Of a stretch of 11,357 nucleotides of DNA, positions 1,355 through 9,463 are shown piece by piece. Both the position numbers and the translations under genes were made by a program. The stretch's first letter is position 1; the number at the start of each line of letters is the position of its first letter. Source of the DNA: a virus. Its lineage: Duplodnaviria > Heunggongvirae > Uroviricota > Caudoviricetes. The notes under the pieces are model-generated. The model made no database searches, had not been told where the DNA came from, and worked only from the letters and a program-made list of their open reading frames with translations. The stretch is taken from the IMG/VR virus record IMGVR_UViG_2698536339_000015; one strand, given 5' to 3'.

Positions 1355-1978
1355 TTAAAATTCGAATTGTCTCGCCCGAAGGCTTTTCAGCATTGGTCTT
1401 GCCCGTTCGAAAAGGGCGCTTGTCTGGTCAAGTCGTGTCGCCTCCCTGAGCAGTGCGTCTCTGTTTTTCGTCACCGTGTAGAAAGTCTCAAACGCGATGT
1501 CATACAGCTTGCTCGAGTATGATGAGTTCAGTTCCTTCAATATCGGATACAGGCGTTTGCTGATGTCCTGTGCTTTCTCCATCTGTACCTGCATGTAGCA
1601 GAGGAGGATGATTTCCTCGTCTGTGAATTGCTGCGCTGGTTGCATGCTGCGAAGTTTCTTTTCGCACTCGATGAAGTATCGGCGTATCTGGCGGCCTTTT
1701 TCGTTGCGCTCGACCATTGCCAGCTCTTTGGCTGTGTCGAGGGTGAGGTGGTAATCCTTGCGGTTGTGACCGCCTCTACCAGATGTTTGCTTTCCCAAAT
1801 TGGAAAGCAAAATATAGTCTTGATTTTCAATGAATTCGTATTCTGAAATGCGATTTGTAATCCATGCCGCAAACACCTTTTTCACGCCTAAAAAAGCATG
1901 CAGATCGCGGGCATTGCAGAGTAGGGCTGTTTCGTTGGCGATAGTGCCGTTGAATACGGGGATGAGTTGACTGGTCAT
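1355..1978 (-). CDS. AntA/AntB-type antirepressor-domain protein (207 aa); N-terminal ~100 aa resemble the phage AntA domain, C-terminal half unassigned
   Basis: ORF with ATG at 1978 and AAGGA 7 nt upstream. N-terminal pattern LIPVF...ARDLHAFLGV...FAAWITNRI..YEFIENQDY...YHLTLDTAKELAMVERNEKGRQIRRYF recalls AntA-family proteins. Family assignment is from memory, not a search. Confidence 0.6.
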   Translation of the reverse strand: MTSQLIPVFNGTIANETALLCNARDLHAFLGVKKVFAAWITNRISEYEFIENQDYILLSNLGKQTSGRGGHNRKDYHLTLDTAKELAMVERNEKGRQIRRYFIECEKKLRSMQPAQQFTDEEIILLCYMQVQMEKAQDISKRLYPILKELNSSYSSKLYDIAFETFYTVTKNRDALLREATRLDQTSALFERARPMLKSLRARQFEF

Positions 1979-3093: not shown

Positions 3094-3378
3094 TTATTCA
3101 TTGCCGATATTCACCTTTATCGCGTATACCTTTACCGGTTTATCGCCGAAGTGCGGATGTGTGATTGTCTTGATTTCATATCCGCCATACGGAACATCAA
3201 TTCTGCGGCTGGAATCGTCGCGCTTCGGATACCCCTTCGTGATGATCAGACTGCCATACTCGCGGTTAACGAGGCGCTTTTTCCAGTAGTCATTAACAAG
3301 GCGATACTCTTCCGTTTTCTCTCCGCGAATCATGGCATCGAAGTATTCACTTTTAACAGCAAGTTGCAGGTTAGCCAT
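3094..3378 (-). CDS. ASCH-domain-like small protein (94 aa from the ATG at 3378; the listed ORF begins one codon earlier at GTG)
   Basis: GEKTEEYR matches the ASCH GxKxxExR motif. Its ATG overlaps the TGA of the upstream TraR-like gene (TGATG). Confidence 0.65.
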   Translation of the reverse strand: MANLQLAVKSEYFDAMIRGEKTEEYRLVNDYWKKRLVNREYGSLIITKGYPKRDDSSRRIDVPYGGYEIKTITHPHFGDKPVKVYAIKVNIGNE

Positions 3379-3599
3379 CACTTAATCCCCCTTTGTTTGC
3401 GGATAAGCTCCAGATCTTGCTGGCAACTTGCACAAGTCCGACAACCCTGAACGGCCAGGCGTCTTCGCTCATCTATGGGATCGCCACACTCACAACAATG
3501 AGTGGCAGATATAGCCTGGTGGTTCAGGCGGCGCATTTTTATTGCTGTGTTGCGCTGTAATTCTTCAATTTCTGATTCTGAATCAATGATGTCTGCCAT
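3378..3599 (-). CDS. DksA/TraR-family C4 zinc-finger protein (73 aa), lambda Orf73-like
   Basis: Two Cys pairs, CECG...CRTCASC, in a 73-aa protein at the position of TraR-like genes in lambdoid pL operons. Confidence 0.8.
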   Translation of the reverse strand: MADIIDSESEIEELQRNTAIKMRRLNHQAISATHCCECGDPIDERRRLAVQGCRTCASCQQDLELIRKQRGIK

Positions 3600-6520: not shown

Positions 6521-6889
6521 TCAGGCGGCTTTGATAGTCATATCATCTGAATCAAATATTCCTGATGTATCGATATCGGTAATTCTTATTCCTTCGCTAC
6601 CATCCATTGGAGGCCATCCTTCCTGACCATTTCCATCATTCCAGTCGAACTCACACACAACACCATATGCATTTAAGTCGCTTGAAATTGCTATAAGCAG
6701 AGCATGTTGCGCCAGCATGATTAATACAGCATTTAATACAGAGCCGTGTTTATTGAGTCGGTATTCAGAGTCTGACCAGAAATTATTAATCTGGTGAAGT
6801 TTTTCCTCTGTCATTACGTCATGGTCGATTTCAATTTCCATTGATGCTTTCCAGTCGTAATCAATGATGTATTTTTTGATGTTTGACAT
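6521..6889 (-). CDS. ea10: Ea10 protein, 122 aa
   Basis: MSNIKKYIIDYDWKASMEIEIDHDV...DSDDMTIKAA; same length and position as lambda ea10. Confidence 0.85.
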   Translation of the reverse strand: MSNIKKYIIDYDWKASMEIEIDHDVMTEEKLHQINNFWSDSEYRLNKHGSVLNAVLIMLAQHALLIAISSDLNAYGVVCEFDWNDGNGQEGWPPMDGSEGIRITDIDTSGIFDSDDMTIKAA

Positions 6890-7671: not shown

Positions 7672-7829
7672 CTGGATTCTCCTGTCAGTTAGCTTTGGTG
7701 GTGTGTGGGAGTCGTAGTCCTGAACGAAAAACACCCCGCAATGGCACATTGGCAGCTAATCCGGATTCGCACTTCCGGCCAATGCTTCGTTTCGTATCAC
7801 ACACACCAAAGCCTTCTGCTTTGAATGCT

Positions 7830-7860
7830 GCCCTTCTTCAGGGCTAAATTTTTAAGAGCA
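7830..7860 (-). promoter_or_regulatory. nutL: boxB GCCCTGAAGAAGGGC (7844..7830) and boxA TGCTCTTAA (7860..7852)
   Basis: Exact lambda nutL boxB hairpin on the minus strand with boxA immediately upstream, in the N leader. Confidence 0.85.
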
Positions 7861-7892
7861 TCACCTTCATGGTGGTTAGTGCGTCCTGCTGA

Positions 7893-7941
7893 TGGCTAAA
7901 TAGTACGATTTGTACTTTATCGAGTCAATACAAAATGTTCT
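7893..7941 (-). promoter_or_regulatory. pL promoter with oL operators: -35 TTGACT (7928..7923), 17-nt spacer, -10 TACTAT (7905..7900), TSS near 7893; operator inverted repeats at 7902-7916 and 7927-7941
   Basis: Promoter elements read on the minus strand. Downstream of the -10 the sequence becomes lambda-like (ATCAGCAGGACGCAC...). AGTACGATTTGTACT is a perfect inverted repeat overlapping the spacer and -10. Confidence 0.65.
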
Positions 7942-7991
7942 AAATATAATTAGTTTTTTATAACGCTTTGTATTTAATGGGTTTATATTTT

Positions 7992-8021
7992 GGAAAAAGA
8001 AAACCCGACGCTAAGGTCGGG
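7992..8021 (-). terminator. Rho-independent terminator (minus strand) downstream of cI
   Basis: Minus RNA CCCGAC-CUUAGC-GUCGGG (6-bp stem) followed by UUUUCUUUUU, 33 nt after the cI stop. Confidence 0.5.
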
Positions 8022-8053
8022 TTATTGTTGTGTGTTTTAGAGTTGTGAGGCTG

Positions 8054-8749
8054 TTAACTAAATGTCTCTTCAGGCCACTGGCTGGCGATAACTTTCCCTA
8101 CTACGGAACAGCTATCATTGCATGGAATCATTGGATATTGCGGGTTTAGTGGCTGTAGGAACACCTGACCGCTATCCCTGATCAGTTTCTTGAAGGTAAA
8201 CTCGTCACCACCAAGTCTGGCTATGCAGAAATCACCTGGCTCAACAGCCTGCTCAGGGTCAACGAGAATTAACATCCCGTCAGGAAAGCTTGGCTTGGAT
8301 CCTGTTGGCGCGGTCATGGAATTACCTTCAACTTCAAGCCAGAACGCACAATCACTGGCTTTTTTGGTTGTGCTGACCCATCTCTCCGCATCACCTTTGG
8401 TAAAGGTTCTAAGCTCAGGCGAGAACATCCCGGCCTGAACATGAGAAAAAACAGGGTACTCATATTGTTTTTTAACGGGGGCAGATGAGTATTCGCCAAC
8501 AGGTGAAAATGTACCGTCGTGGTTGAATGAGACGTTATCAATACCAAGGTATTTAAACACCACACCAATCTCGTCAAGAGATGGATGACGAGATCCGCGC
8601 AACCAGTGACCAATTCCACCCTGCGTCATACCAAGCTCTTCAGCTAACTTCTCTTGAGTTATGCCGAGCTCTTTCATTCTGGATCTAGCCAGTTCATACC
8701 ATTTCATTTTCATACCCTTATTATTACGCTCTGTACTAAAACCATCCAT
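8054..8749 (-). CDS. cI: CI-type prophage repressor (231 aa from the ATG at 8749): non-lambda HTH N-terminal domain plus lambda-cI-like S24/LexA-type autocleavage C-terminal domain
   Basis: From [30 protein letters not shown]... to the end matches the lambda cI C-terminal domain (including AGMF and GNSM). The N-terminal ~95 aa are unrelated to lambda cI but contain an HTH ([25 protein letters not shown]). Start is uncertain: TTG at 8755, ATG at 8749 (possibly leaderless like lambda pRM), or ATG at 8713/8707 after AAGGG. Confidence 0.85.
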
Positions 8750-8810
8750 GCACAAGATGTATTTTTTGTTTGCATTCTAAAAGTACATATCGTATTATTG
8801 TTTCATGGTT
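8750..8810. promoter_or_regulatory. oR/pR/pRM region: pR -35 TTGCAT (8770-8775), 17-nt spacer, -10 TATTAT (8793-8798); operator AGTACATATCGTATT (8782-8796)
   Basis: Divergent intergenic region between cI and cro. The operator repeat has the same AGTAC-N5-GTAyT architecture as the oL site and overlaps the pR -10. Confidence 0.55.
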
Positions 8811-8824
8811 ACTATGGAGGGCAT

Positions 8825-9040
8825 ATGAGCAACCTACGAAAATATCGAGAGTCACTGAATATCTCTCAAACAACACTTGCTAAGGCAGTTGGATGCACAC
8901 AGGGAGCTATCGGACATTGGGAATCTGGTCGTCGCTTCCCAGACCTTAAAACATGCCGTGCTCTTGTTGAGTGCCTAAACAAGTTGGGCGCAAAAGTCAG
9001 TCTTGATGACGTGTTCCCGCCGGAACACAAAGCCGCTTAA
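8825..9040 (+). CDS. cro: Cro-type HTH repressor (71 aa), 434-Cro-like fold rather than lambda Cro
   Basis: ATG at 8825 preceded by GGAGGG. HTH LNISQTTLAKAVGCTQGAIGHWESG has a recognition helix very similar to that of the cI N-terminal domain ([11 protein letters not shown]). Confidence 0.8.
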   Translation: MSNLRKYRESLNISQTTLAKAVGCTQGAIGHWESGRRFPDLKTCRALVECLNKLGAKVSLDDVFPPEHKAA

Positions 9041-9048
9041 GACATTCC

Positions 9049-9080
9049 CGCTCTTACACATCCCAGCCCTGAAAAAGGGC
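9049..9080 (+). promoter_or_regulatory. nutR: boxA CGCTCTTAC (9049-9057) and boxB GCCCTGAAAAAGGGC (9066-9080)
   Basis: Exact lambda nutR boxA and boxB sequences directly downstream of cro. Confidence 0.85.
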
Positions 9081-9159
9081 ATCAAATTAAGCCACACCTA
9101 TGGTGTATGCATTTATTTGCATACATTCAATCAATTGTTATCTAAGGAAATACTTACAT

Positions 9160-9438
9160 ATGCAACTTACAAGTACTCGCAAGAAAGCGAATGCAATTAC
9201 AAGCAACATCCTGAATCGAATTGCTGTACGTGGTCAGCGAAAGGTTGCCGACGCGTTAGGGATTAATGAATCGCAAATTTCGCGATGGAAAGACAGCTTT
9301 ATCCCAAAGATGGCCATGCTTCTGGCTGTGCTGGAGTGGGGTGTTGAAGACGAGGAATTAGCAAAGCTAGCAAAGAAAGTAGCCATGGTGCTGACAAAAG
9401 AAAAGCCTCAAGACTGCTGCAACAGTTTTGAGGCCTGA
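9160..9438 (+). CDS. cII: CII transcriptional activator homolog (92 aa)
   Basis: ATG at 9160 with AAGGA RBS. The central region (SQISRWK...IPKMAMLLAVLEWGV) aligns with lambda CII; both termini differ. The upstream 60 nt are lambda-like, including the pRE -10 region. Confidence 0.8.
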   Translation: MQLTSTRKKANAITSNILNRIAVRGQRKVADALGINESQISRWKDSFIPKMAMLLAVLEWGVEDEELAKLAKKVAMVLTKEKPQDCCNSFEA

Positions 9439-9463
9439 TGTAGAAAGACTGGATCAATCCACA
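9396..9463 (-). ncRNA. oop: OOP-like antisense RNA, about 65-70 nt, opposite the cII 3' end
   Basis: pO-like promoter on the minus strand (-35 TTGAGT 9498..9493, 17-nt spacer, -10 CATAAT 9475..9470). Terminator GCCUCAA...UUGAGGC (9434..9405) followed by UUUUCUUUUGU. Confidence 0.5.

Follow-up and report, generated by a model that had tools for sequence, protein, structure and literature searches.

The control region at positions 7,861 to 8,824 of a stretch of viral DNA of 11,357 nt (in the following called the window) raises the question which immunity type is encoded by a lambda-like switch, whose operators do not resemble those of lambda, 434 or P22. In a first-pass annotation this region was described as a heterologous immunity module, in which inverted repeats of the form AGTAC-N5-GTACT lie over the core elements of pL and pR and are read by cI and Cro via nearly identical recognition helices. 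The immunity type was not recognized there, which implied a novel specificity.

The early region of the window is of the lambda type, as seen from the ORF map and the Pfam assignments, and the window as a whole displays 94% identity to lambda across 72% of its length. On the minus strand the genes int, xis, exo, bet, gam, kil, cIII, ea10 and N are present. The cI repressor is encoded on the same strand at 8054–8713 (219 aa with the ATG at 8713 as start) and contains an HTH_3 and a Peptidase_S24 domain, while cro is located on the plus strand at 8825–9040 and encodes an all-alpha HTH_3 protein of 71 aa, which is followed by cII (9160–9438), O and P. For cI, an alternative ATG is found at 8707. 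The TTG start of the longest cI ORF at 8755, which lies inside oR2, was dropped and the ATG at 8713 or 8707 is preferred. The divergent cI and cro genes flank a multi-site oR, a second operator is present at pL upstream of N, and N and nutL are located downstream of pL. Taken from ORFs, Pfam domains, promoter scan and motif positions, this is the gene and operator arrangement of a lambdoid cI/Cro switch, and the reading of the region as such a switch is well supported by the comparison with relatives. Here, oL lies ~40 bp past the terminator of cI and oL1 is separated from oR1 by 0.88 kb. The backbone is lambda-like and within the window not Stx-converting.

A comparison with lambda revealed a mosaic. 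Up to position 7894 the DNA is lambda-like and this similarity stops just before oL1. It is followed by a non-lambda oL (7895–7995), the terminator that in lambda lies after rexB (7996–8031), a lambda-like segment encoding the C-terminal domain of cI (8060–8464, 93.8% on nucleotide level), a non-lambda segment comprising the N-terminal domain of cI, oR and cro (8465–9046), the nutR/tR1 region of lambda (9047–9162), a non-lambda cII (9163–9447) and, from 9448 on, lambda O. Over 7895–7995 and 8465–9046 no nucleotide similarity to lambda was found, so that the immunity is not the one of lambda itself. These boundaries indicate that the specificity determinants are swapped as two small cassettes, which is the usual lambdoid pattern. 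The window shares with lambda the gene order, the tripartite oL and oR, the flanking DNA and the placement of oR1 at about −17 of pR. In contrast, the operators are unrelated, the Cro protein of lambda is of the alpha+beta type instead of the all-alpha HTH_3 type present here, and rexAB is absent from the window.

For pL, the promoter scan placed a −35 element TTGACT (7928–7923) and a −10 element TACTAT (7905–7900) with a 17-bp spacer on the minus strand (7900–7928), directing transcription leftward into nutL and N. This promoter matches the 'putative major leftward promoter' annotated for the phage VT2-Sakai (Sp5, GenBank AP000422). On the plus strand, pR (8770–8798) is composed of TTGCAT and TATTAT, again with a 17-bp spacer, and the scan gave an overlapping register at 8769–8798. 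A promoter pRM for cI is predicted on the minus strand (8720–8748), with a −35 element TGGATG (8748–8743), a 17-bp spacer and a −10 element AATAAT (8725–8720). It was read from the sequence and failed the consensus promoter scan; its position is that of the 'putative maintenance promoter for cI' in the GenBank records AP000422 and AP005153. Transcription from pRM is predicted to begin at about the cI ATG (8713), so that an mRNA without leader, like that of lambda, is suggested for cI. An intrinsic terminator of the cI transcript was detected by a terminator scan on the minus strand at 8002–8023. Its homologous counterpart in lambda is the terminator that follows rexB, and BLAST gave 89% identity to lambda for 7996–8031.

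The two proteins expected to read the operators are of different architecture. The helix TQGGIGHW of cI and the helix TQGAIGHW of Cro (surrounding segment of Cro: VGCTQGAIGHWESG), whose near-identity had been pointed out in the first-pass annotation, occupy equivalent positions of the Pfam profile HTH_3. Seven of the eight helix residues are identical, with a single G/A difference, at an overall identity of the two proteins of only 34%. The C-terminal part of cI belongs to Peptidase_S24 (E 9e-29) and is ~98% identical to lambda cI in a PDB search (lambda repressor 3bdn and others). It retains the motifs VQAGMF, GNSMT and FKKLI and carries in this way both the Ala-Gly cleavage site and the catalytic Ser/Lys dyad of an S24 autocleavage domain. 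The N-terminal domain of cI is only weakly related to lambda (E 0.003 to 1lli). The positive-control residues E34 and D38 of lambda align with glutamates. Among solved structures, 28tn_A is the one closest to Cro (E 2e-16). Weak matches to P22 c2 and the 434 repressor (E 0.006–0.1) were also obtained in the PDB search.

A motif search of both operator regions, as suggested by the first-pass annotation, gave six 15-bp sites in all. At pL, oL1 (7902–7916; AGTAC-GATTT-GTACT, AGTACGATTTGTACT) is a perfect dyad over the −10 element and the spacer, oL2 (7927–7941; AATAC-AAAAT-GTTCT, AATACAAAATGTTCT) lies over the −35 element, and oL3 (7960–7974; ATAAC-GCTTT-GTATT) is weak with 7/10. Between cI and cro, oR3 (8723–8737; ATTAC-GCTCT-GTACT, 9/10) covers the −10 element and the spacer of the predicted pRM, the weak oR2 (8749–8763; TGCAC-AAGAT-GTATT, 7/10) adjoins the −35 element of the predicted pRM and lies upstream of the −35 element of pR, and oR1 (8782–8796; AGTAC-ATATC-GTATT, AGTACATATCGTATT) covers the spacer and the −10 element of pR. 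The dyads at 7902–7916, 8782–8796 and 7927–7941 are thus present exactly as quoted before, and the promoter scan agrees with their position over the pL and pR cores. Four of the six sites had already been listed; oR3 and oR2 had been missed and oL3 had been placed one base off, at 7961–7975. From centre to centre, neighbouring sites are 25 and 33 bp apart in oL, and in oR the distances are 26 bp (oR3 to oR2) and 33 bp (oR2 to oR1), in comparison to 24 and 20 bp (oL) and 23 and 24 bp (oR) in lambda.

These dyads are enriched. With up to two mismatches, eight copies are present in the window in comparison to 2.1 expected, a number reached by none of 200 shuffles, and all copies with zero or one mismatch fall within oL or oR. 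Furthermore, an exhaustive enumeration of every 5-mer dyad with spacers of 0–9 bp in the two control regions returned AGTAC-N5 as the top dyad, while AATAC-N5 takes in all six sites. A weight matrix was trained on the sites of Salmonella phage L and Erwinia only and then run over the 11.4-kb window. Here, oR1, oL1, oR3 and oL2 were the best four positions (ranks 1–4 in this order), whereas oL3 (rank 6) and oR2 (rank 17) by themselves scored at background level. On the basis of their sequence, the first four sites stand on their own merits as candidate operators, and the assignment of oL3 and oR2 rests on context and positional conservation.

To which extent this conservation is present becomes visible from the relatives of the switch. 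A Cro scan of representative genomes yielded six loci, including three near-identical copies of the E. coli type. Two of the E. coli-type copies are binned in MAGs of Bacillota and Segatella, which is probably due to contamination. In an Enterobacteriaceae prophage (L009), Cro is 80% identical and the helices are TQGGVGHW and SQGAIGHW, and in an Erwinia phyllosphaerae prophage (L010), Cro is 77% identical and a c2 repressor of the phage L type with the helix TQGAIGHW is present. An Avibacterium locus, the Cro of which is 46% identical and has a different helix, displayed no clear dyad. The Salmonella phage L itself has a c2 repressor with the helix TQGAIGHW and a Cro that is 70% identical to that of the window. 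For the latter the complete phage L genome was used, because the older cro entry (X94331) seems to contain a frameshift past residue ~25. In the unbiased enumeration, AATAC-N5 is the top dyad in phage L as well as in Erwinia, and phage L contains five AATAC-N5-GTATT sites.

The oR regions of the window, VT2-Sakai, the Enterobacteriaceae and Erwinia prophages and Salmonella phage L, which are five diverged regions, were aligned. Invariant are the block ATTATTACG, which comprises the left half of oR3 and the −10 element of the predicted pRM, TGTA.T in the right half of oR3, CAC and GTATT in the two halves of oR2, TTG of the pR −35 element, and AGTAC and GTATT in the two halves of oR1. In contrast, all N5 spacers and the DNA between the sites are variable. 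The −10 region of pR is conserved as well, and the −35 element of the predicted pRM reads TTGTCA in phage L. The oR of phage L aligns site for site with a distance of 60 bp from oR3 to oR1, and the Erwinia prophage, whose repressor has a C-terminal domain of a different type, shares the 26/33 spacing of oR3, oR2 and oR1. Similarly, the half-sites of oL1 and oL2 are kept with variable spacers, and oL2 is conserved in the Enterobacteriaceae and Erwinia prophages. The third site oL3 is kept only in the E. coli/Enterobacteriaceae group and is not clearly seen in Erwinia or phage L.

This pattern bears on the number of sites. If the real operators were limited to the strong dyads oL1, oL2, oR1 and oR3, oL and oR would each consist of two sites, nearer to the reduced set of 933W than to lambda. 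The background-like scores of oR2 and oL3, the missing conservation of oL3 in Erwinia and phage L and the location of oR2 outside of the core promoter pR would fit to this. On the contrary, CAC and GTATT of oR2 keep both sequence and position throughout the five oR regions, although the spacer in between has changed in every lineage. Furthermore, oR2 is placed relative to pRM like its lambda counterpart (~−43 and −42, respectively), and weak sites that are filled through cooperativity are normal in lambdoid switches. A restriction to four sites is therefore considered unlikely, and the set of six is retained.

The same relatives speak to the question whether both proteins read these dyads. Since cI and Cro are so different overall and deviate at one position of the helix (G instead of A) and in its flanks, only one of them might bind here and the other one might use a different or extended element, and it is known from 434 and P22 that proteins with similar helices may differ in their order of site preference. 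However, the near-identity of the helices at equivalent HTH_3 positions argues against this, no second repeated element was found in the exhaustive dyad enumeration of the two control regions, and in phage L as well as in Erwinia this type of helix goes together with this type of dyad for both proteins. A division of this kind is very improbable, and cI and Cro are taken to share the six sites. The more distantly related phage mEp213 provides a comparison. Its Cro is 53% identical and six 15-bp N5 dyads are present in the same arrangement, but the helices (SQSRIGNY and NQSRLANY) and the dyads, A(T/A)CAC-N5-GTG(T/A)T, are those of another specificity. Another helix together with another half-site at the same geometry is as expected if the TQGGIGHW-type helix reads the half-sites of the window.

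In the phages 434 and P22, the N-terminal domain of the repressor and Cro are all-alpha HTH_3 (XRE-type) folds with near-identical helices, which share their dyads and leave a central spacer without contacts. Their half-sites are ACAA-N6-TTGT in 434 and of the ATTTAAG type in P22. The window displays the same combination of an all-alpha HTH_3 repressor domain and an all-alpha Cro with near-identical helices; the helix sequence and the half-sites are different and the similarity to the proteins of the window is marginal. The module is therefore heterologous to 434 and P22 as well as to lambda, in line with the first-pass annotation. The phage L immC (X94331), on the other hand, has the recognition helix and the operator consensus found in the window. 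Together with the Erwinia prophage it shares a Cro of 70–77% identity, dyads of the form A(G/A/T)TAC-N5-GTA(C/T)T and promoters in the same places. In contrast to the window, the C-terminal domain of c2 in these two is of another type and not lambda-like, the N-terminal domain is related but clearly diverged in sequence, and neither of them shows a clear third oL site.

A far closer match emerged when the N-terminal domain of cI and Cro were compared with characterized immunity types, a check that had been recommended before. It is VT2-Sakai (Sp5). The cI proteins are 96% identical, and no difference occurs within the first ~45 residues, which comprise helix 2 and helix 3 (TQGGIGHW) of the HTH. 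The Cro proteins share 70 of 71 residues (98.6%) and differ solely in a change from E to A outside of the HTH. The six dyads correspond to the six 17-bp 'putative operators' annotated in AP000422 and AP005153, where pL, pRM and pR are annotated too. On the level of single bases, 59 of 60 half-site positions are identical between the window and VT2-Sakai, while 6 of the 30 spacer positions differ and the intergenic DNA around the sites has diverged by ~8% (oR) to 22% (oL). In detail, oL1 and oL2 have the same half-sites as OL1 (TAGTACGATATGTACTT) and OL2 (CAATACAATTTGTTCTA) of VT2-Sakai, oL3 differs from OL3 (TACAACGCTTTGTATTT) in one half-site base, and the 15-bp core of oR3 is identical to that of OR3 (TATTACGCTCTGTACTG). 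The counterparts of oR2 and oR1 are OR2 (ATGCACAATGTGTATTT) and OR1 (AAGTACATATTGTATTT). The operator sequences have been published. They are listed in Table S5 of Yin et al., 2015 (PMC4587872), as the 'same as operator sequences in E. coli O157:H7 Sakai' with reference to Fattah et al., 2000, and the same six are given in Table S1 of PMC10742460. Both publications cite Fattah et al., 2000, for the description of the immunity region of VT2-Sakai and its six operators. According to a paper on the binding of lambda cI to these sequences, the study of Fattah et al. had also noted that the C-terminal part of the VT2-Sakai cI is lambda-like and the N-terminal part divergent.

Judged by this identity, the module is the already described VT2-Sakai (Sp5) immunity type and not a new one. 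The first-pass annotation itself had stated that identity of repressor and operators with a characterized phage would contradict novelty, and this identity is what was found. For a specificity undescribed so far one could still argue that the operators have no similarity to those of lambda or BAA2326 and that the closest phages carry generic names in GenBank. Nevertheless, the DNA-binding domain identical to that of VT2-Sakai cI, the nearly identical Cro and the shared half-sites, as well as the published operators and the wide occurrence in E. coli genomes and many Stx phages, render an undescribed specificity highly improbable. The region is very probably the lysis-lysogeny switch of a lambda-like prophage with VT2-Sakai specificity, of the same family as the immC of Salmonella phage L, in which cI acts on the dyads.

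VT2-Sakai and the window have in common the six operators at the same positions, the layout of pL, pR and pRM and the lambda-like C-terminal domain of cI. They differ in ~1.3 kb of extra ORFs that are present between oL1 and oR1 in VT2-Sakai, in contrast to the compact 0.88 kb of the window, and in the N protein, which is the one of lambda in the window and of the 933W/H-19B type in VT2-Sakai. A megablast search with 7700–9200 matched 145 phage records. Here, Dewey, Louie, vB_EcoP-720R6, vB_EcoP-683R2 and phi458 are 98–99.6% identical, and a large set of Stx phages (among them the Stx1 converting phage AP005153, Stx2 phage II, Nil2, 2851 and the PA series) reach ~93% over cI-oR-cro. The relatives of VT2-Sakai with the same immunity comprise AP005153, Stx2 phage II, Nil2, 2851, 1717, the PA-series PST1 phages, Dewey, Louie and phi458. 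In the GenBank records of the closest phages only generic names are used. Of 5426 complete genomes of E. coli, 786 carry the 582-bp specificity segment, and E. coli W as well as many strains of O157:H7 are among the carriers.

A prophage with a lambda backbone thus joins the immunity group of VT2-Sakai, which is among the commonest in E. coli and is common to major Stx1 and Stx2 phages. From the shared immunity it is predicted that a lysogen should be immune to these Stx phages and able to recombine with them. Other types were considered as well. The 933W/BAA2326 type was set aside because the footprinted BAA2326 operators are unrelated (PMC5977221); this comparison covered OR1–3 of BAA2326 as quoted there. 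The footprinting papers from the Koudelka laboratory deal with 933W and BAA2326. Operators of the PST3 type (ATAAC...GTTAT, 13–14 bp) differ from the dyads of the window, too.

The immunity type is medically relevant, and no published footprint of the cognate repressor-operator interaction was found in the literature. For VT2-Sakai (Sp5) cI or phage L c2, neither a footprint nor an EMSA nor a genetic operator mutation with the cognate repressor was found; the literature on these operators gave sequence-based operator lists and EMSAs with the heterologous lambda cI. The latter are the sole binding data that were found for these operator sequences, with apparent affinities in the micromolar range. 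The six dyads are therefore regarded as predicted binding sites. Although the module is an ordinary, known one, of which little is new, the comparative analysis adds modest value, since operator sites that were so far taken from GenBank annotation receive comparative support across four genera and the VT2-Sakai immunity type is now linked to Salmonella phage L.

The sequences themselves show the genes and domains, the sites with their promoter overlaps, the conservation and the identity to the known module. How such a switch would work can be outlined along the paradigm of lambda, 434 and P22, from which we infer the binding, the order of affinities, the cooperativity and the activation of pRM with its leaderless start. 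Dimers of cI would bind via the helix TQGGIGHW to the 15-bp dyads of the consensus A(G/A/T)TAC-N5-GTA(C/T)T. Repressor at oL1 and oL2 would block pL, and repressor at oR1 would block pR. At oR2, which is centred ~43 bp ahead of the cI start beside the −35 element of pRM, cI probably activates pRM like the repressor of lambda, and the glutamates aligned with E34 and D38 render this activation plausible. At a high repressor level, cI at oR3, over the −10 element of the predicted pRM, would shut off its own promoter. Cro consists of a single HTH domain with the same recognition helix and would read the same sites, turning off pRM and later on pR and pL. The lambda-type C-terminal domain with its Ala-Gly site, Ser and Lys predicts a RecA-dependent induction as well as dimer-dimer contacts.

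The geometry leaves some room for a different wiring. While the distances of 26 bp between oR2 and oR3 and of 25 bp between oL1 and oL2 are lambda-like, the 33 bp between oR1 and oR2 (24 bp in lambda) are not, and oR2 does not overlap the −35 element of pR, so that a lambda-style cooperativity between oR1 and oR2 is not assured. Despite the lambda C-terminal domain, the switch may hence be wired unlike that of lambda, which we regard as rather unlikely. If a pairing of oR2 and oR3 were favoured or another geometry needed, the autoregulation of pRM and the threshold of induction would depart from the textbook model. Furthermore, with C-terminal domains that are nearly identical, the cI of the window and the cI of lambda might form mixed oligomers. 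This would fit to the cross-immunity of VT2-Sakai with lambda that is attributed to Fattah et al., 2000.

In the immunity region of the window, the predicted operators are spaced, from centre to centre, by 25 and 33 bp in oL (centres at 7909-7967) and by 26 and 33 bp in oR (centres at 8730-8789). This differs from lambda, where the corresponding distances are 24 and 20 bp in oL and 23 and 24 bp in oR. The oR of Salmonella phage L can be aligned site for site with the oR of the window. The 26/33 pattern is also found in a prophage of Erwinia phyllosphaerae, yet the C-terminal domain of its repressor is different.

For phage L, the Cro encoded in the complete genome is 70% identical to Cro of the window over the full length. 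The cro gene in the older immC entry from the 1990s (X94331, 1678-1875) displays a translation that departs from all relatives past approximately residue 25, as would fit a frameshift error in this entry. The nearest solved structure for Cro of the window (8825-9040) is PDB 28tn_A, an 82-aa protein described as 'lambda repressor-like protein' (E 2e-16). Its recognition helix reads TAGAICHY, in contrast to TQGAIGHW in Cro of the window, and a model of this protein could be built on the structure.

The comparison with lambda revealed a recombination junction within cI at approximately 8464/8465, in the linker joining the DNA-binding and the C-terminal domains; the lambda-like DNA (8060-8464) lies on the C-terminal side of the gene (8054-8464, minus strand). 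Compared with lambda, rexA and rexB are absent from the window, while the lambda terminator located downstream of rexB has been kept (7996-8031) and lies immediately after cI. On the other side of the switch, cII (9163-9447, Phage_CII family) is a non-lambda allele, although the flanking nutR/tR1 region and O are 97-98% identical to lambda. The cII of VT2-Sakai is annotated as similar to CII of 933W and HK022; a comparison of the cII DNA of the window with VT2-Sakai gave no match there either.

Two short contigs, one binned in a MAG of Bacillota and the other in a MAG of Segatella copri, carry the E. coli phage module in nearly identical form. Here, contamination during binning is the most likely explanation, rather than host range.

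The leftward pL operon harbors an ORF of 207 aa (1355-1978, minus strand) with AntA/AntB and P22_AR_C antirepressor domains, which lies in the distal part of the operon, flanked by xis and the recombination genes, and does not belong to the lambda gene set. Its target could be the repressor of the window itself or that of a co-resident prophage. Furthermore, the operon contains a DksA/TraR-type zinc-finger ORF (3378-3599, minus strand, 73 aa) as well as a DUF2528 ORF (6521-6889, minus strand, 122 aa), which occupies the position of ea10; both are ordinary accessory genes of lambdoid phages.
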